This document shows positions 32,114 through 60,093 of a stretch of 64,000 bases of DNA, one piece after another. The translations under genes and the position numbers were made by a program. Under the pieces are notes generated by a model. It saw only the letters and a program-made list of their open reading frames with translations, was not told the DNA's origin and did not search any database. The stretch's first letter is position 1, and every line of letters starts with the position of its first letter. Where the stretch lies: contig JAAYXB010000027.1 of NCBI GenBank assembly GCA_012516125.1, positions 102,093 to 166,092 of the forward strand, in the 5' to 3' direction. Origin of the DNA: Bacillota bacterium. Lineage in GTDB: Bacteria; Bacillota; SHA-98; UBA4971.

Positions 32114-32389
32114 GCTATCCCTCCCTTGTGCGCCTTTTTCCCGGGCGTCCGCCCGGCTATACGGGGGCCGGGAACGCCCGCGCGGCAGGACACAATCTAC
32201 AGGCAGGACACAGTCTACAGCATGATATTGAGGCGCGGAGGAGTAGGTGCTTGGGCACCAACGCCATCTCACATCATGATTCTGTCCACTTCATGGCATC
32301 GCTGCTCGGTAAAGCTCCGGAAGTAAAGCCCCGGAAGACGGCGGCTGTGGACAGTTAAACTGACGGCTACTTGGTAAGACTAGCAGGCA

Positions 32390-32506
32390 CGTAGAGAGAT
32401 TGCTCCCGACCTTTGGAAGGGGTTGCCGGTGACTCGAAGAGAGAGTTCAACACCGGCAACCCATCAGATGCTGACAAGCCGCGAGCAACTAACGAACCGT
32501 GGGTTA
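32390..32506 (+). repeat. MITE-like repeat, copy F (short variant)
   Basis: GATTGCTCCCGACCTTTGGAAGGGGTTGCCGGTGACTCGAAGAGAGAGTTCAACACCGGCAACCCATCAG...GGGTTAG is highly similar to copy E. The terminal TTAG overlaps the purB stop codon (32504-32506). Confidence 0.55.
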
Positions 32507-33796
32507 GACCCCGACCCGACGAAAGATATCGTCGATGTGGGCGAGGTGTCTCGAGAGGTCGAAACAAGCCTCTATATCGGTGGGCTTCAGCACGGCGGTG
32601 ATCTCGGGGTCGCCAGAGATGAGCTCCTTGAAGTTCAGCCCTTCGTCCCAGGCCCGGGCGGCGTTCCGCTGCACGAGCGCGTACGCGTGCTCACGGCTAA
32701 GCCCGCGCCCCACGAGGGCCAGCATCACAGCCTCGGAGAATACGAGGCCGCCCGTCATCTCGAGGTTGGCCTGCATTCTGTCCTTTCTTACAACGAGGCC
32801 CTCCATTACCTCGGCGAACTTCCGAAGCATGTAATCCATGAGGGTGGTCGCGTCGGGGAGCACGATCCTCTCAACAGAGGAGTTGCTGATGTCTCGCTCA
32901 TGCCACAGGGGCGTGTTTTCCATAGCAGCCATGGCGTACCCCCGCATCACTCTCGCGAGACCGGTGATCCGCTCTGAAACGATAGGATTGCGCTTGTGCG
33001 GCATGGCCGAGGACCCTTTCTGGCCCGGCCTGAACGGCTCCTGCACCTCGAATACCTCGGTGCGCTGGAGACCCCGTATCTCGGTGGCGAACTTCTCCAG
33101 GGAGCTGGCGATGATGGCGAGGGTGGTGACGTATTCTGCGTGGCGGTCGCGCGAGAGCACCTGGGTTGAGGCCTTCGCAGCCTCGAGCCCAAGCTTGCTG
33201 CATACATACTCCTCGACCCTCGGGTCCATGCTCGCATAGGTGCCGACGGCGCCCGAGATCCTGCCCACGCTCACCACCTCGCGTGCCCTCTGCATCCTCG
33301 CGAGATTGCGGCGCATCTCGGCGACCCAGACCGCCAGCTTGAGCCCGAAGGTGATAGGCTCGGCATGCACGCCGTGAGTCCTGCCGACCATGGGCGTGTT
33401 CTTGTATTCCCGAGCCTTCTCGGCAAGGACGTCGATGACCTTGCGGATGTCCCGAATGATTATGTCCGCGGCGTCCCGCAGGAGCAGCGAGAGGGCGGTA
33501 TCCACCACGTCGTACGACGTCATGCCCATGTGGATGTAGCGTGCCTCGGGGCCGACGTTCTCTGATACGTTCGTGAGGAACGCTATGACGTCGTGGTCGA
33601 CTATCGCCTCTATCTCGCGAATCCTCGCGATGTCGAACCGAGCCTTTTCCCTGATGGCCTCAACGGCGTCCGCCGGCACTCGCCCTATGCTCGCCCAGCC
33701 CTCGCAGGCCAGGATCTCGATCTCCAGCCATTTCCTGTAGCGGTTCTCTGGCTCCCAGAGTTGCTTCATCTCGGGATACGTGTAACGCTCTATCAT
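32504..33796 (-). CDS. purB: adenylosuccinate lyase
   Basis: MIERYTYPEMKQLWEPENRYRKWLEIEILACEGWA plus the fumarate-lyase signature region. Start at ATG near 33796 with GGAGG RBS. The ORF-track 49-aa N-terminal extension is artefact. Confidence 0.9.
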   Translation of the reverse strand: MIERYTYPEMKQLWEPENRYRKWLEIEILACEGWASIGRVPADAVEAIREKARFDIARIREIEAIVDHDVIAFLTNVSENVGPEARYIHMGMTSYDVVDTALSLLLRDAADIIIRDIRKVIDVLAEKAREYKNTPMVGRTHGVHAEPITFGLKLAVWVAEMRRNLARMQRAREVVSVGRISGAVGTYASMDPRVEEYVCSKLGLEAAKASTQVLSRDRHAEYVTTLAIIASSLEKFATEIRGLQRTEVFEVQEPFRPGQKGSSAMPHKRNPIVSERITGLARVMRGYAMAAMENTPLWHERDISNSSVERIVLPDATTLMDYMLRKFAEVMEGLVVRKDRMQANLEMTGGLVFSEAVMLALVGRGLSREHAYALVQRNAARAWDEGLNFKELISGDPEITAVLKPTDIEACFDLSRHLAHIDDIFRRVGV

Positions 33797-33949
33797 GCCA
33801 TGTCGCCTCCGATGCTTCGACGCGTTGGCCGCGCCCGTACCGCCCGTACCGCCGCGGCCCCCTGGGTTGGCTTCTCCTTGGCTTCTCCCGTCGCCCGCTT
33901 CCGAACCCCGAACCCCGTTCGAACCCCGGCTCACAGCCGGCACTGGACT

Positions 33950-43543: not shown

Positions 43544-44051
43544 TCTCCTGCCTCCCGTTCCCAGGGACTATCCGGGTCATCCCGAAATCAGGCGCCAGCT
43601 TGGAGATACATGAAACCGCAGGCCCACACAAGGTGTGTTTGCGAGCGGGTGCAGACGGTCGTCATGGCCGCCAAGGAATAGCATGCCGGAGGCCGCGCGC
43701 CGGTATGCCGCCGGTGTGCCGCCAAGCGAGGGTGGGTTAACTCTCGTCCGTTCGACGCCCCGACGCAGCCGCCTTCGGGCAAGCCGCAAGCTACTGCGCG
43801 ACTGTGCAGTCATGCGGCGGACGATCCGCCGTTCATCCGCTGATTATGCGGCCTACAATTCGCTACCAGCTGGCCAATCCTCCAGCGACTGGTTCGCCGA
43901 AAATCGGGTGACTTGCCGACGTGCGGTTCGCCAGTGAGTAGATGATTGTGCGCGCCAATGCTCTACCCATCCGCTGTTTCGCCAGCAAACGACTCGCACA
44001 CGCCCGGCTGGCACCCGCTCGGCCGATCATGCACAGGACGATCAAAAGCCG

Positions 44052-44253
44052 CTCAGTGAGGGTGCAGAAATGCTCCCGAGCTTTGGGAGGGGTTGCCGAT
44101 GATTGCACGAGGGGTGTCAAAATCCGGCTGCCTAGCCAGACGGGCCGGATTTTGGCGAAGCGCGCCCCGCTTGGGGCGCCGTCCCCGAGCGCAACACCGG
44201 CAACCCGGCAACTACTGGAAGAGGGGCGAGAACTAACGCACCCTTACTTCGAG
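44052..44253 (+). repeat. MITE-like structured repeat, copy A (long form)
   Basis: Begins CTCAGTGAGGGTGCA and ends GCACCCTTACTTCGAG (degenerate TIRs). Core TTTGGGAGGGGTTGCCGATGATTGCACGAGGGGTGTCAAAATCCGGCTGCCTAGCCAGACGGGCCGGATTTTGG...CAACACCGGCAACCCGGCAACTACTGGAAGAGGGGCGAG is about 90% identical to copy B. Confidence 0.75.
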
Positions 44254-44419
44254 GATAAGCCAGGGGACAGACCGCTTGGCTGATCGTGCGTGGGACGATC
44301 GTCAGCCTTTGACTGTCGCAGGATGTGACGCAACACCTCGCGGGGACATAGACTGTATCGGGAAGTAAAGGATCTTCCCCCCAGCGAGCGGCAAGTCTCC
44401 GAAATCTGGAGGGAGGGAG

Positions 44420-44641
44420 ATGGCGGAGCCTCTGGCTGTAGGTGATTTCGTCACCAGGAAGTCTTATGATGGTGACGTCGTCTTCAAGGTCGTCGCCGTC
44501 GAGGGCGATAGCGTCCTGCTACGCGGCGTCCTGCTCAGGATCATGGCAGATGCCCCTACAAGCGACGTTGTGAAGGTCGAGCCGGAGCGTGCCCTCCTGG
44601 CACTGCGCTCTCTCGAACGCTTTGAAAGGAAAACAGGCTAA
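44420..44641 (+). CDS. small hypothetical protein (73 aa; possible SH3/KOW-like beta-barrel)
   Basis: Strong RBS GGAGGGAG 5 nt before the ATG. One of only four plus-strand genes in the window. Pattern VGDFVTRKSYDGDVVFKVVAVEGDSVLL resembles small Bacillus beta-barrel proteins (YkvS/DUF2187-like), from memory. Flanked by repeat copies A and B; its stop lies in the copy B TIR. Confidence 0.4.
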   Translation: MAEPLAVGDFVTRKSYDGDVVFKVVAVEGDSVLLRGVLLRIMADAPTSDVVKVEPERALLALRSLERFERKTG

Positions 44642-44835
44642 GTGGGGGTGCAAAAATGCTCCCGACTTTTGGGAGGGGTTGCCGGTGATTGCACGAGGGG
44701 TGTCAAAATCCGGCTGCCTAGCCGGACGGGCCGGATTTTGTCAAGACGCCCCGCTTGGGGCGCCGTCCCCGAGCGCAACACCGGCAACCCGGCAACTACT
44801 GGAAGAGGGGCGAGGACTAATGCACCTTCACTTAG
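44638..44835 (+). repeat. MITE-like structured repeat, copy B (long form)
   Basis: TIRs CTAAGTGGGGGTGCA...TGCACCTTCACTTAG. Internal nested inverted repeats: GGTTGCCGGTG/CACCGGCAACC, CAAAATCCGGC/GCCGGATTTTG and CGCCCC-GCTT-GGGGCG. The left TIR supplies the TAA stop of ORF 44420-44641. Confidence 0.8.
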
Positions 44836-44872
44836 GACCGCAAGTAGCGCCAGGAAAGGAGTGGTTTGAGGC

Positions 44873-45196
44873 ATGCGGACCATTACCAGAGAAGAGCTTA
44901 TGCAACTCGAACAGTACATTAAGACGCTTCCACCTCAGGACAAAGAGCCGCAGGTCCTCGCGAGCCCGCAGCAGCTCACGTTCGTCCTTGCAAGGGCCAC
45001 ATGGTTCAGGCAGCAGGCCCCCGAGGGCAGCAGAGTTCTCTGGATCGCTTCCACTGATTCAGGATACGTTACGAGGACGGTGAGCGAGGACTTCGTGGCA
45101 AACTGGGGCTCAGTGATCATGGCCGCGGATCAATTGTGGCTGGGCGTCGATGCAAACTCCGTCATCATGCTGTGGCAGCCCGGGGCGACTTTCTAG
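44873..45196 (+). CDS. hypothetical protein (107 aa)
   Basis: RBS AGGAAAGGAG 8 nt before the ATG. No recognisable motif (MRTITREELMQLEQYIKTLPPQDKEPQVLASPQQLTFVLARATWFRQQAPEGSRVLWIAS...). Lies between repeat copies B and C. Confidence 0.35.
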   Translation: MRTITREELMQLEQYIKTLPPQDKEPQVLASPQQLTFVLARATWFRQQAPEGSRVLWIASTDSGYVTRTVSEDFVANWGSVIMAADQLWLGVDANSVIMLWQPGATF

Positions 45197-45294
45197 GCGT
45201 TGGGTTGGAGGGCTCGCGACAGGGCGTGCGGGCAGGCACACAAAATCAGGTGACCCCCGGGAAACGGGCGACCTTTCCCGGGGGATTACCGAAT

Positions 45295-45382
45295 TAAGTG
45301 AAGGTGCACAAATGCATCCAACCCATGGGAGGGATCGCCGGTGACTCGGCCGGTGACCAGGACCTCACGCACCCTCACTTAG
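45295..45382 (+). repeat. MITE-like repeat, copy C (short, degenerate)
   Basis: TTAAGTGAAGGTGCAC ... GGGAGGGATCGCCGGTGACTCGGCCGGTGACC ... GCACCCTCACTTAG. Same TIRs with the internal region reduced to about 60 bp. Ends 21 bp before the stop of the lipoprotein gene. Confidence 0.6.
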
Positions 45383-45403
45383 GCGCCTCAGTGGGGCGCG
45401 TGC

Positions 45404-46192
45404 CTACCGTGAGATCGCGAACTGCTTGCTCACGCCGTACGGGATGTAGAGCACCCACTTGAGGCCTTCGAGGGTCGGGTCAGCAGCGAAGTCCTTTGTG
45501 AACTTAGGGAAGATCAAGAACCCTCTTTTCCACGATCTCGCTGCCACCGGACCGTCGATATCATTCTTCACCGGGACCGGATAATAGTAGGTCTTTGCGA
45601 TCTTCGCGGTCTCAACAGTATAGTAGGCCTCGAGCTGAGGGTATATCGACACCTCGTGGTCGAGCGTGTTCTCTATCAGGATATCGAACTTGATTTCCGC
45701 GGGAAGCTCCAGAAGGGCGAGAACGGTCACGCGGACGCCGTCGACCTCGCAGGGTTCCTTGAACATGACCCCCGGAAGGAAGCTGTCCGAAGCCCATCCG
45801 CGCCCACGCCTGCCATCGTCCACTATAGACCATCTGCCGTCGCCGGACTTTTGCGCTTTCACGTACCTGACACCGAAGTTGCCGTCGCCGTCCTTGAACA
45901 CGACTTTCACAAGGTGGTAGTCGGCGAAGGTCGCGCTCTCGCAAGACACCAGGGCAGGAACGCCCGAGCGCTTCTCCCCCGTAGCGCTTGTGTATTCCAC
46001 CCAGGACCTTGCCGCACCTGCTGCAAGTTTAATGGCCTCGGAATACTCACCCGATTCCATCGCAGTCACGTAGCGCACCGCGAGTTCCTGTGCATCCTTC
46101 GCGTCGTCGGCAAGAGCGGGACACGCTCGAACCATGGCGAGAACCAGCGCCAGCAACGACAGCGCGAACAGAACGGGCAGCTTCTTTGACAT
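45404..46192 (-). CDS. secreted/lipoprotein of unknown function
   Basis: MSKKLPVLFALSLLALVLAMVRAC is a signal peptide with a possible lipobox Cys. About 260 aa mature protein, no recognised catalytic motif. Start at ATG 46192. Confidence 0.5.
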   Translation of the reverse strand: MSKKLPVLFALSLLALVLAMVRACPALADDAKDAQELAVRYVTAMESGEYSEAIKLAAGAARSWVEYTSATGEKRSGVPALVSCESATFADYHLVKVVFKDGDGNFGVRYVKAQKSGDGRWSIVDDGRRGRGWASDSFLPGVMFKEPCEVDGVRVTVLALLELPAEIKFDILIENTLDHEVSIYPQLEAYYTVETAKIAKTYYYPVPVKNDIDGPVAARSWKRGFLIFPKFTKDFAADPTLEGLKWVLYIPYGVSKQFAISR

Positions 46193-46626: not shown

Positions 46627-48876
<2,250 letters not shown>

Positions 48877-48880
<4 letters not shown>

Positions 48881-52314: not shown

Positions 52315-52514
52315 CTAAGTGAGGGTGCGTCAGGCCTTGTCCCTTTTCCAGTAGTTGCCGGGTTGCCGGTGTTGTACTCGGGCACGGCGCCCCAAGCGGG
52401 GCGCGCTTCGCCAAACTCCGGCCCGTCTGGCCAGCGGCCGGATCTTGACACCTCTTGTGCAATCGCCGGCAACCCCTCCCAAAAAACCGGAACCATTCTT
52501 GCACCCTCACTTAG
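52315..52514 (-). repeat. MITE-like structured repeat, copy D (long form, inverted orientation)
   Basis: Perfect 14-bp TIRs CTAAGTGAGGGTGC / GCACCCTCACTTAG. Its reverse complement aligns to copy B at about 85-90% identity. Sits between the convergent NlpC/P60 gene (stop 52298) and dgkA, whose stop (52511-52513) lies inside the TIR. Confidence 0.8.
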
Positions 52515-52894
52515 AGGAGGCGGAGGAGGGCGCGGGCCACGGGGACAAGTTTCGGCCCGAGGACCGCGGCACCCACGACGGTCGCCCACGCGGCGCTTAC
52601 AAGCACAGTTCCCGCGGCTATGTCCTTCACGGTCTTGACCCGAATTTCCCAGGTAGGGCAGGCTATATCACAGATGAGTTCGAGGGCGGTGTTGGCAAGC
52701 TCGCAGATGAGGACGAGGGCGATGGCAAGGGCGAGGCACGCAAGCTCGACCATCGATACCCCGAGGGCGCCCGCGGCCGCCAGCACAGAGGCGGCCGCGA
52801 TGAAATGAATGCGCATGTTGCGCTCGGTGGAGAGCACAGCCTTCACGCCCTGCACAGCGCAGCGAAAGCTCTCTCCGAGCGACCTGGTCTTCAC
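52511..52894 (-). CDS. dgkA: diacylglycerol/undecaprenol kinase
   Basis: DgkA three-TM fold (ESFRCAVQGVKAVLSTERNMRIHF..ELANTALELICD). Stop codon inside the TIR of repeat copy D. Confidence 0.8.
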   Translation of the reverse strand: MKTRSLGESFRCAVQGVKAVLSTERNMRIHFIAAASVLAAAGALGVSMVELACLALAIALVLICELANTALELICDIACPTWEIRVKTVKDIAAGTVLVSAAWATVVGAAVLGPKLVPVARALLRLL

Positions 52895-58333: not shown

Positions 58334-58457
58334 CTTCGTGAGGGCGCAAAGATGCTCGCGACTTTGGGAGGGGTTGCCGGTGACTCAAAGAGAGAGTGCA
58401 ACACCGGCAACCCAGCAACTACTGGAAAACGGACAAGAACCGGCGTACCTTAACTTA
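58334..58457 (+). repeat. MITE-like repeat, copy E (short variant)
   Basis: CTTCGTGAGGGCGCA...GACTTTGGGAGGGGTTGCCGGTGACTCAAAGAGAGAGTGCAACACCGGCAACCCAGCAACTACTGGAAAACGGACAAG...CCTTAACTTAC. The long middle hairpin is replaced by a short ACTC...GAGT stem. The end supplies the stop of the hypothetical gene 58455-59066. Confidence 0.65.
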
Positions 58458-59066
58458 CAGCCGGATTCTGCGTCTGAGGGCACGGGGAGGGCCCAGCACC
58501 TCAGCCAGCACCACCGCACGCATGAGCTCCTCAGGCCCGAGTTCGCCGATGATGTCCGTGGCGGCCCGCGTGTCAGGCAGGTCGTACCGCCCCCGGCGTT
58601 CCTCGGTCGATGCGCTGACGCGACGCCGTGAAGGCGCGGAGGGGCGGCCCAGTCCCGTGTCCGTTGCCCATTCCCCAGCCTCCGCCCATTCCAGGCTGAG
58701 GCCTTCTTCAGAGAACCACTCCTCGGTCGAGCGCCGACGCCCTCTACGCCCGCGTGTCTCCTCAGGGGGCCGCTGGTACACCGGGTGCGCCGCGGCCGAC
58801 CCCTCGGGAGCCGGAGGTTCCGGACGGCCTTCGAGGGTGCGACCGGGCTGCACCGTCATATCGTCCCGGGCCTCGGACGCCACCGGGCCCTCAGCGGGGC
58901 TCGCCGGCACGCCCGCGCCGGTCCCTGTCCCGGGCGCCTCCGACGGTGGTATCCGGGGCCATGGGGCGCCCGCGCCCCTGGTCCTTCCCTGGCGCCCCTT
59001 TGAGACGGCCGCTATGGCCACGGCAACCATATAGAGCAGAAACAGAAGCCCGAAAATGGCATCCAT
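58455..59066 (-). CDS. hypothetical membrane-anchored, Pro/Arg/Glu-rich disordered protein (yqfB position)
   Basis: ATG immediately after the floA stop (TGATGATCTGATG), suggesting coupling. One N-terminal TM (MDAIFGLLFLLYMVAVAIAAV), then a low-complexity region. No similarity to B. subtilis YqfB that I recognise. Confidence 0.4.
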   Translation of the reverse strand: MDAIFGLLFLLYMVAVAIAAVSKGRQGRTRGAGAPWPRIPPSEAPGTGTGAGVPASPAEGPVASEARDDMTVQPGRTLEGRPEPPAPEGSAAAHPVYQRPPEETRGRRGRRRSTEEWFSEEGLSLEWAEAGEWATDTGLGRPSAPSRRRVSASTEERRGRYDLPDTRAATDIIGELGPEELMRAVVLAEVLGPPRALRRRIRL

Positions 59067-59073
59067 CAGATCA

Positions 59074-60093
59074 TCACTTCTTCTTCTCGTCTTCAGCGGG
59101 CGGCTCATCAACGGGCTCCCGCGGTTCGCTGACACCTGCTATAGACTGTCTCATGCGCGTGTCGGCCAGCACGTTCTGCAACTGGTAGTAGTCGAGGACC
59201 CCAAGCTTGCCCGAGCGGAGCGCCTCCGCAAGCGCCTTCGGGACCTCGGCCTCCGCCTGGACCACCCTCGCGCGCATCTCCTGAACCTGCGCTTTCATTT
59301 CCTGCTCTCGCGCAAGCGCTGCGAACCTCCGCTCGGCAGCCTTCGCCTGTGCGATGTTCTTGTCGGCCTCGGCCTGGTCCATCTGCAGTTGCGCGCCGAT
59401 GTTCCTTCCGACGTCCACATCGGCTATGTCGATGGAAAGTATCTCGAAGGCGGTGCCTGCGTCGAGACCTTTGCTCAGCACGGTGCGGGAGATCTTGTCG
59501 GGGTTCTCCAGCACCTCCTTGTGGCTCTCAGCCGAGCCCACGGTTGTCACCACGCCTTCGCCGACCCTCGCGATGATGGTGGCCTCACCCGCGCCGCCGA
59601 CGAGCCTGTCGATGTTGGCGCGCACCGTCACCCGGGCCTTGGCCTTGAGCTCAATGCCGTCCTTCGCGACCGCAGCCACCACGGGCGTCTCGATCACCTT
59701 CGGGTTCACGCTCATCTGAACGGCCTCCAGAACGTTTCTGCCCGCAAGGTCTATGGCGCACGCCCGCTCGAACGACAGATTGATCTCCGCCCGCTGGGCC
59801 GCGATGAGCGCGTCAACCACACGGTCGACGTTGCCTCCGGCAAGGAAGTGCGCCTCCAGCTTGTCCACGCTCACTTGAAGGCCGGCCTTCACCGCCTTGA
59901 TAAGCGGCAGGATGATCCGCCCCGGTGGAACCCGGCGCAAGCGCATCCCCACTAAGGTGAAGATGCCCACGTGCACCCCGGCTGCCCACGCGGATACCCA
60001 GAGGCCCACCGGCACGAAGTTCAGCAGGATGAGCAGACCGACGATGATAAGGACAGGCAGGATCAAGAACGCGTATACCGCTCCCATTTCCAT
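59074..60093 (-). CDS. floA: flotillin-like protein FloA (SPFH domain)
   Basis: Aligns throughout with B. subtilis FloA/YqfA ([70 protein letters not shown]). ATG 60093 with GGGAGG RBS. Confidence 0.85.

Follow-up and report, generated by a model that had tools for sequence, protein, structure and literature searches.

The window analyzed here, a stretch of 64,000 nucleotides from an uncultured Bacillota bacterium (contig JAAYXB010000027.1, positions 102,093 to 166,092 of the forward strand), contains six copies (A-F) of a repeat, of which copy B occupies 44638-44835. Our data indicate, with a probability of about 0.8, that this repeat is a MITE (miniature inverted-repeat transposable element), a non-autonomous DNA transposon, and that the nested hairpins inside it are its conserved central module. 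An earlier note on this DNA had suggested that the hairpins form a structured RNA module and had overlooked that 44638-44835 is an entire element with terminal inverted repeats (CTAAGTG...CACTTAG). The repeat shows the traits by which MITEs are recognized: it is short, carries no transposase gene, has terminal inverted repeats, duplicates a TA, occurs in many dispersed copies, and is present at some orthologous sites and absent from others. Elements of this kind are already known; the element itself, which is unrelated in sequence to Correia, ERIC, RUP and MITEPsy1, is new.

Copies, ends and target site of the element

A profile search recovered about 85 elements in the window and 48 further loci (L numbers below), 32 of them full length, and all had the same ends, CTAAGTGRGGGTGC...GCACCCYCACTTAG. 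The terminal inverted repeats are 12-14 nt long, with AGTGRGGGTGCA at both ends, in the 32 full-length copies with CTAAGTG...CACTTAG. Element lengths range from 89 to 200 bp, and the internal open reading frames (ORFs) are chance read-throughs only. The lengths of copies with paired terminal repeats cluster at 197-200 and 124-126 bp, with a few shorter remnants, and the element proper measures ~192 bp in the long form or ~120 bp in the short form. The spacer between the arms of the outer stem (P1) is 19 nt or about 92 nt. A simple nested insertion into the short form does not account for the long form, because the left junctions differ (ATTGCAC versus ACTCAAAGAGA).

The base before TA was C at 69 of 77 element ends, and by symmetry a G follows the right TA; the target is therefore C-TA-G. 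Five comparisons of filled and empty orthologous sites were made, one of them a nested insertion. At L163 260-448 the site is filled, with the sequence gcggc-TA-[element]-TA-ggtgg; the homologous site in L112 is empty and has a single TA (gcggcTAcgtgg). At L163 868-1076, an element of a second family (family 2) lies between two TAs in the left-arm hairpin loop of an element of the alpha family, to which the window copies belong, and thus both families use the same target rule. Copy D is missing in L092, a relative with 94% identity in which the genes for a C40 peptidase and diacylglycerol kinase are 20 nt apart. Copies B and F are missing in a relative with 75% identity (L220/L221); the closer relative L218 (94%) carries copy F.

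The six copies in the window are as follows.

44052-44251, + strand: copy A, long form; ends slightly decayed (CTCAGTG...TACTTCG)
44638-44835, + strand: copy B, long form, whole element; layout C-TA-[element 44641-44832]-TA-G; no counterpart at the orthologous site of the 75%-identity relative
about 32380-32507, + strand: copy C, short form; left end decayed and its coordinate approximate
52315-52514, - strand: copy D, long form; ends intact; not present in the 94%-identity relative
58334-58458, + strand: copy E, short form; P1 retained, with ACTCAAAGAGAGAGTGCAA in place of the inner helices P2-P4
45294-45382, + strand: copy F, internally deleted remnant of 89 bp; both ends kept, without the 3' arm of P1

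Duplication of TA at CTAG is the product of IS630/Tc1-mariner transposases, and a TA duplicated at a TA (CTAG) target is what was seen here. The element ends are of the AGTG type, which we take to resemble the ends of Tc1/Tc3. The TA duplication and these ends would together favor an enzyme of the IS630/Tc1-mariner type, with one of the IS5 type as a second possibility. The IS5 family (IS427/IS1031-like), for which a duplication of 2-4 nt at CTAG/YTAR is expected, fits in its target and in a match to its GAGGGTG motif; its documented examples duplicate 3-4 nt, and the duplication here is 2 nt. A DDE transposase supplied in trans would move the element, and an autonomous partner would be bounded by TA plus AGTGRGGGTGCA or AGTATGGCGCC ends.

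Two observations weigh against the MITE reading. Two empty sites in diverged relatives read TTAG or TGA and not CTAG. In addition, searches of the window and of 1.4 Mb of related loci for solo ends, for inverted TAAGT ends 600-4000 bp apart, and, among 1,494 ORFs of these loci, for protein families in several copies gave no autonomous element with such ends; because no such partner was found in the 1.4 Mb, we only infer the transposase family.

Copy density is roughly 80-95 per Mb, or about one per 11 kb, as estimated from six copies in the 64 kb of the window and a similar frequency in the flanks of the loci. The left motif was found in the uncultured Bacillota metagenome-assembled genomes (MAGs) JACIXY01, JASEJE01, JBLNDE01, JAEZKW01 and DKEX01, with one genome per species scanned. 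The matches in other MAGs were limited to the repeat, at 87-95% identity, and their flanks were unrelated to the window. The terminal repeat had no matches among viral contigs, and a BLAST search of the element against plasmids gave no match. Alpha-family copies were also seen on contigs L010, L053 and L078 of JBLNCC01, which is labelled Betaproteobacteria MAG135 and belongs to the same BioProject as an element-carrying Bacillota MAG; mis-binning or transfer may be involved.

Architecture and conservation of the central fold

The core structure was defined on 30 alpha-family cores. It spans 120 nt and consists of P1 (12 bp), a bulged A, P1b (6 bp), a GA/GA internal loop, P2 (4 bp), and a three-way junction that bears P3 (11 bp) and P4 (7 bp). 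A 205-nt stretch containing copy B folds with -113.6 kcal/mol on the + strand (z = -7.1) and with -103.8 kcal/mol on the - strand (z = -8.0). When up to one mismatch is allowed, the window has 13 occurrences of an 11-mer of the element compared to 2.06 expected, and none of 100 shuffles reached 13. The parts of copy B are listed below.

44639-44640: left copy of the duplicated TA; the next A completes the TAA stop of ORF 44420-44641
44641-44652, + strand: left terminal inverted repeat, AGTGGGGGTGCA
44659-44675, + strand: small hairpin of the left arm, CTCCCGAC-TTTT-GGGAG; CATTTTTG comes after it on the - strand
44677-44687, + strand: 5' arm of P1 (outer stem), GGTTGCCGGTG
44688, + strand: bulged A of copy B
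44689-44694, + strand: 5' arm of P1b, TTGCAC; partner GCGCAA at 44773-44778, with one A.C mismatch in copy B
44695-44696 opposite 44771-44772, + strand: tandem G.A internal loop, GA opposite GA
44697-44700 with 44767-44770, + strand: P2, 5' arm GGGG paired with CCCC
44704-44740, + strand: P3 hairpin, CAAAATCCGGC (44704-44714), 15-nt loop, GCCGGATTTTG (44730-44740)
44747-44762, + strand: P4 hairpin, CGCCCC-GCTT-GGGGCG
44779-44789, + strand: 3' arm of P1, CACCGGCAACC
44789-44796, + strand: tandem repeat of CCGGCAAC beside the 3' arm of P1
44821-44832, - strand: right terminal inverted repeat, reverse complement AGTGAAGGTGCA
44833-44834: right copy of the duplicated TA

The stems reported in the earlier note can be read directly in copy B: GGTTGCCGGTG and CACCGGCAACC are exact reverse complements, and both inner hairpins, CAAAATCCGGC/GCCGGATTTTG and CGCCCC-GCTT-GGGGCG, are present. 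Its statement that every copy conserves the outer motifs is nearly correct, as the left motif has one mismatch in each of copies A, C and D. The outer stem was also said to be kept in the short copies, which does not apply to copy F, in which neither the right motif nor the 3' arm of P1 is left. Perfect inner hairpins were claimed for all long copies, and in copy D the first of them is imperfect. The sequence of copy C departs from the others after CAACACCGGCAACCC.

Within the alpha family, 95.4% of the alignment cells are paired, the same as in shuffles, and with only three double changes there is no covariation. The identity of the stems among the window copies therefore reflects recent common descent and not selection. 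With the structure held fixed, the resident copies have 71 G.U compared to 85 A.C mismatch cells; an excess of G.U seen early (about 84 versus 29) was an artefact of pairs chosen by RNAalifold and disappeared with the fixed structure. Private mutations per site were 0.54 in the core and 0.71 in the arms (p = 0.17). The decay of the resident copies looks neutral, with the core changing at the same rate as the arms.

The profile search also matched cores without alpha arms; these come from related MITE families, in which the arms have diverged much further. The ends of these families have in common only CTAAGT and a loose pattern, for example CTAAGTATGGCGCCATAAGT...GGCGATCTACTTAG and CTAAGTGTGGATTCAGAAATCC.... 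A covariance model of the core, together with a metagenome scan aimed at non-alpha cores, gave an alignment of 75 sequences, in which 24 of 40 pairs are changed on both sides across the families. There were 160 double-change cells compared to 54 +/- 7 in shuffles, and none of 500 shuffles reached the observed value in any of five measures. When the partners were slid by 1-3 columns, pairing was 43-49%; the true structure gave 92%.

Covariation between families was strongest in P3, for which the haplotypes CAAAATCCGGC/GCCGGATTTTG and TCGAATTTGGC/GCCAAATTCGA differ in five pairs and are both paired at 11 of 11 positions. In the beta group, P3 alternates between GAATTTGGC/GCCAAATTC and GAATTCGGC/GCCGAATTC. 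P4 changes from GCGCCCC/GGGGCGC to GCGCGC/GCGCGC between families, and P2 gains a paired C and G in related families. All families retain the GA/GA loop as well as the CGU junction, and between families the core is better conserved than the arms. As far as can be judged from the sequences, these comparisons support selection on the fold in the lineages of propagating elements, not in resident copies. Selection on the fold had been read in the earlier note from the window copies, whose family shows no covariation; it is the diverged related families, with compensatory changes between them, that argue for it. The proposal of a free-standing RNA module was not supported, as the core is the center of a mobile MITE whose resident copies decay neutrally.

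Mosaic elements were also present, with alpha arms around a beta core or with a family-2 left end and a family-4 right end (L073 3444-3638; L119 and L151; L150 793-1131), and they suggest recombination between MITE families. Separately, L172 2444-2574, from a soil metagenome, is a near-perfect long palindrome that has only GTTGCCGGTGC/GCACCGGCAAC in common with the core. It is probably unrelated and was pulled in by the search pattern.

Possible roles of the fold

Orientation was counted after the removal of duplicate loci. In tandem gene contexts, the + strand of long-core elements is in sense to the upstream gene in 29 cases and antisense in 11 (~2.6:1; p = 0.006), and relative to the nearest 3'-facing gene the long forms are in sense by 33:13 (p = 0.005). 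The corresponding count for short forms is 6:8. The + strand fold is the more stable one in 63 of 88 cores, by a mean of 3 kcal/mol, and the GA/GA loop becomes TC/TC on the opposite strand. The orientation bias and the more stable + strand fold point weakly to a strand-specific, possibly RNA-level effect.

We tentatively suggest, at odds below even, that P2-P4 would form a compact + strand fold in read-through from the upstream gene, which could protect or insulate the 3' end and in this way reduce the damage done by an insertion beside a stop codon; such a lower cost would explain the excess of sense orientation. Action as a stabiliser of mRNA 3' ends or as a protein-binding site, both named in the earlier note, is a possible role for the hairpins. 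It is more doubtful whether the core is a structured RNA not described before, spread by the MITE superfamily and acting as a sense-strand module that protects or processes 3' ends in read-through transcripts. If true, this structured-RNA reading would account for the compensatory upkeep of the fold despite diverging arms, and for the sense preference of long-core copies.

Several points tell against selection on the fold and against an effect bound to one strand. The covariation alignment was fitted to the model structure and contains few independent lineages (alpha, several beta types and gamma), and for these reasons the shuffle figures overstate the significance. In a quasi-palindrome, templated mutation can also produce compensatory changes without any selection. 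The orientation bias depends on crude gene calls based on G+C content at third codon positions (GC3), and it is confounded with the direction of replication because Bacillota genes are mostly co-oriented with replication.

A role for folded single-stranded or cruciform DNA during transposition may be considered about as likely as the read-through fold. In its broader form, which we regard as possible but doubtful, this explanation takes the core to be a cis-acting DNA structure (hairpin or cruciform), or a subterminal platform for the transposase or a host factor, with no role as RNA. It agrees with a constraint that acts on propagating lineages and not on resident copies, with the strong folding of both strands, and with mismatch types that are strand-symmetric. 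Two GTTGCCGG motifs in inverted orientation make up P1, which is kept in every form and family, and a third copy follows in tandem on the right side (44789-44796). However, short forms without P2-P4 are abundant and widespread, so at most P1 would be needed, and TA-duplicating DDE transposases are not known to require folded DNA. The orientation bias confined to long forms and the GA/GA loop, which is TC/TC on the other strand, point instead to one strand. Because short forms have spread equally well, P2-P4 are not needed for cutting and pasting, and because every form keeps P1, it is P1 that is the likelier putative binding site for a transposase or host factor.

The core might instead be a host-level structured non-coding RNA, such as a riboregulator, processing site or protein-binding RNA, that works at each locus and is only distributed by the repeat. 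This is unlikely, even though it would be in keeping with the covariation across families, with the conservation of the tandem GA/GA loop and junction bases on the + strand, and with the more stable + strand fold and the sense excess seen in long forms only; elements that often stand directly after stop codons are also likely to be co-transcribed. The resident copies show no purifying selection, as their pairing equals that of shuffles, G.U is about as frequent as A.C, and mutations in the core equal those in the arms. The elements are also found in either orientation and in gene contexts of all three kinds (tandem, convergent, divergent), and orthologous sites in relatives have no copies. The core had no meaningful Rfam match even at E <= 10, as a search of 43900-45500 at this cutoff gave only two chance-level matches (E about 9). 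Rfam 15 gave no matches in the window at gathering thresholds, and neither tRNA nor tmRNA was found.

It is quite improbable that the pairing has no function and is maintained by template switching in replication or repair, a process that corrects quasi-palindromes and would produce double changes in one event. The whole element is palindrome-like, the variation between families lies mostly in a few helices and few lineages, and the resident copies are neutral, all in keeping with such a process. It would be expected to perfect the stems, not to retain the same imperfect architecture, and what is kept across families includes the non-palindromic bulged A, the GA/GA loop and asymmetric junctions and loops. 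The better conservation of the core over the arms between families also argues against it.

The earlier note had proposed a transcription terminator or attenuator as one role for the hairpins, and this is very unlikely in spite of the stable GC-rich stems, the many copies directly after stop codons, and the frequency of convergent and tandem contexts. There is no T-run (U-tract in RNA) after P1, P3 or P4 on the + strand. The single weak site, a 5-bp stem followed by CATTTTTG, is on the - strand of copy B, and the family consensus at this position is CATTTCTG. Terminator-like sites were as numerous as expected from shuffles, and a scan for terminators and promoters gave no signal over shuffles. 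Copy B lies within an operon with an intact downstream gene, and 10 of 66 copies are between divergent genes.

Assignment of the repeat to REP/REPIN elements mobilized by RAYT, or to palindrome-associated elements of the IS200/IS605 type, is hardly credible: it shares with them palindromic sequence, intergenic location and high copy number, but it has true inverted ends of at least 12-14 nt, duplicates TA on insertion, is 125-200 bp long compared to 20-40 bp for REP/REPIN and without GTAG or CGTC tags, and no Y1-type transposase gene occurs as a multi-copy family in the related loci. Elements of the IS200/IS605 type bear hairpins near their ends and have neither terminal inverted repeats nor a target duplication. 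A hammerhead-like self-cleaving ribozyme was rejected, as the CUGAUGA/GAAA core is absent from the junctions (UGU, GGCGAAG and CGU) and no Rfam ribozyme model matched. An integron attC site was rejected as well, since the ends are CTAAGTG/CACTTAG and not RYYYAAC/GTTRRRY and each copy stands alone amid housekeeping genes.

Known relatives and gene context

Correia elements (NEMIS/CREE) of Neisseria have a duplicated TA and occur in full-length and internally deleted size classes. The present element is like them in being short and non-coding, with terminal inverted repeats, a duplicated TA, two size classes and hundreds of copies near genes, and Correia elements are also co-transcribed and folded as RNA. 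Transcripts that contain Correia elements are cleaved by RNase III (PMC10969869). There is no sequence similarity between the two and the host here is an uncultured Bacillota, and the center here is a branched three-way junction with compensatory changes across families, whereas that of Correia elements is an IHF site. ERIC/IRU elements of enterobacteria and yersiniae are also similar, as imperfect palindromes of about 127 bp that are located at gene 3' ends and have longer variants with internal insertions. ERIC affects transcript stability by exposing an RNase E site (PMC10969869). The sequences and hosts are unrelated, however, and here a precise CTAG target sets many copies on stop codons, with an effect on mRNA that would be analogous at most by inference.

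RUP of Streptococcus pneumoniae and the IS630-derived MITEs, such as the cyanobacterial Nezha, duplicate TA and are presumed to be mobilized in trans by an IS630-family transposase. A parent insertion sequence (IS) with matching ends is known for RUP, in contrast to the present element, and since no parent IS was found here in the sequence searched, the link to IS630 is drawn from the duplicated TA and from how the ends are built. The IS5-related MITEPsy1, a MITE of 100 nt from Pseudomonas syringae, targets CTAG or YTAA and duplicates 4 nt (PMC3189936). Its CTAG target is shared, and IS5-type ends such as GAGGGTG resemble GAGGGTGCAGAAA here, but only TA is duplicated in the present case compared to 4 nt. 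REP/BIME and REPIN are likewise abundant intergenic palindromes that have been proposed to stabilize mRNA 3' ends; they differ in that their units are 20-40 bp, are moved by RAYT, and have neither terminal inverted repeats nor target duplication, a description that the present repeat does not fit. The searched literature contained no account of the element; matches to its sequence motifs were unrelated primer coincidences, and a search for MITE with Limnochordia gave nothing relevant.

Insertion changes C-TAG into C-TAA-GTG, and CTAG holds TAG on both strands. Many copies consequently sit exactly on a stop codon with the stop kept. At least 19 of 77 ends (about a quarter) close a coding-looking ORF at the TAA of the element. 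In the window, four genes take their stop from an element end, namely ORF 44420-44641, 32504-33943 (-), 52511-52894 (-) and ORF 58455-59135, and two of these stops are formed as follows.

32504-32506: TTA of copy C, stop codon for adenylosuccinate lyase (gene 32504-33943, -)
52511-52513: TTA of copy D, stop codon for diacylglycerol kinase (gene 52511-52894, -)

Among 66 copies, the gene contexts were tandem in 46, convergent in 10 and divergent in 10. The two genes on either side of copy B are separated by 25 nt in the 75%-identity relative, and the downstream one is intact; copy B is thus inside an operon. The match of the 73-aa ORF at 44420-44641 (+) to the YabG peptidase model (Pfam U57) is confined to the model's first ~57 positions. 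The 75%-identity relative keeps the same 73-aa gene and, after 25 nt, a 108-aa gene without a Pfam match. The ORF pair 44420-44641 (+) and 44873-45196 (+) looks like a small conserved two-gene operon that was split by copy B.

An estimated 1-2% of these genomes consists of this repeat, which interrupts assemblies from short reads and alters stop codons as well as the spacers in operons; annotators should therefore mask and label it. Public short-read contigs with window genes stop inside copy D (L089 3384-3504, L090 and L091; window gene 52511-52894), which indicates that the repeat fragments assemblies of this organism. An internal fold that is conserved beyond the element's own ends and has an orientation preference is also a tractable case for the function of MITE cargo. 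Such cargo might aid movement, soften the cost of landing beside genes, or be an RNA that the host can use, and public metatranscriptomes from anaerobic digesters could decide among these roles.

A few further observations were made on reading frames and on the window. The element ends (for example 44638-44645) give stops in two frames, as C-TAA-GTG and, when the base given as R is A, as CT-AAG-TGA; in the G variant no stop interrupts the third frame anywhere in the element, and this accounts for spurious ORFs such as 44589-45083. The elements at L015 6069-6265, L034 1875-2006 and L080 6384-6514 lie inside long ORF calls, and are either in-frame gene insertions or read-through artefacts of a crude gene caller. 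A run of hexamers of the CTCGCC/CTTCACC type at 48554-48623, within ORF 47792-48880 (-), is a low-complexity coding repeat. GC skew is negative throughout the window (1-64000), nearly all genes are on the - strand, and the sporulation genes yabP and yabG-like are present, which fits a chromosome arm of a spore-forming Bacillota that is replicated in one direction.

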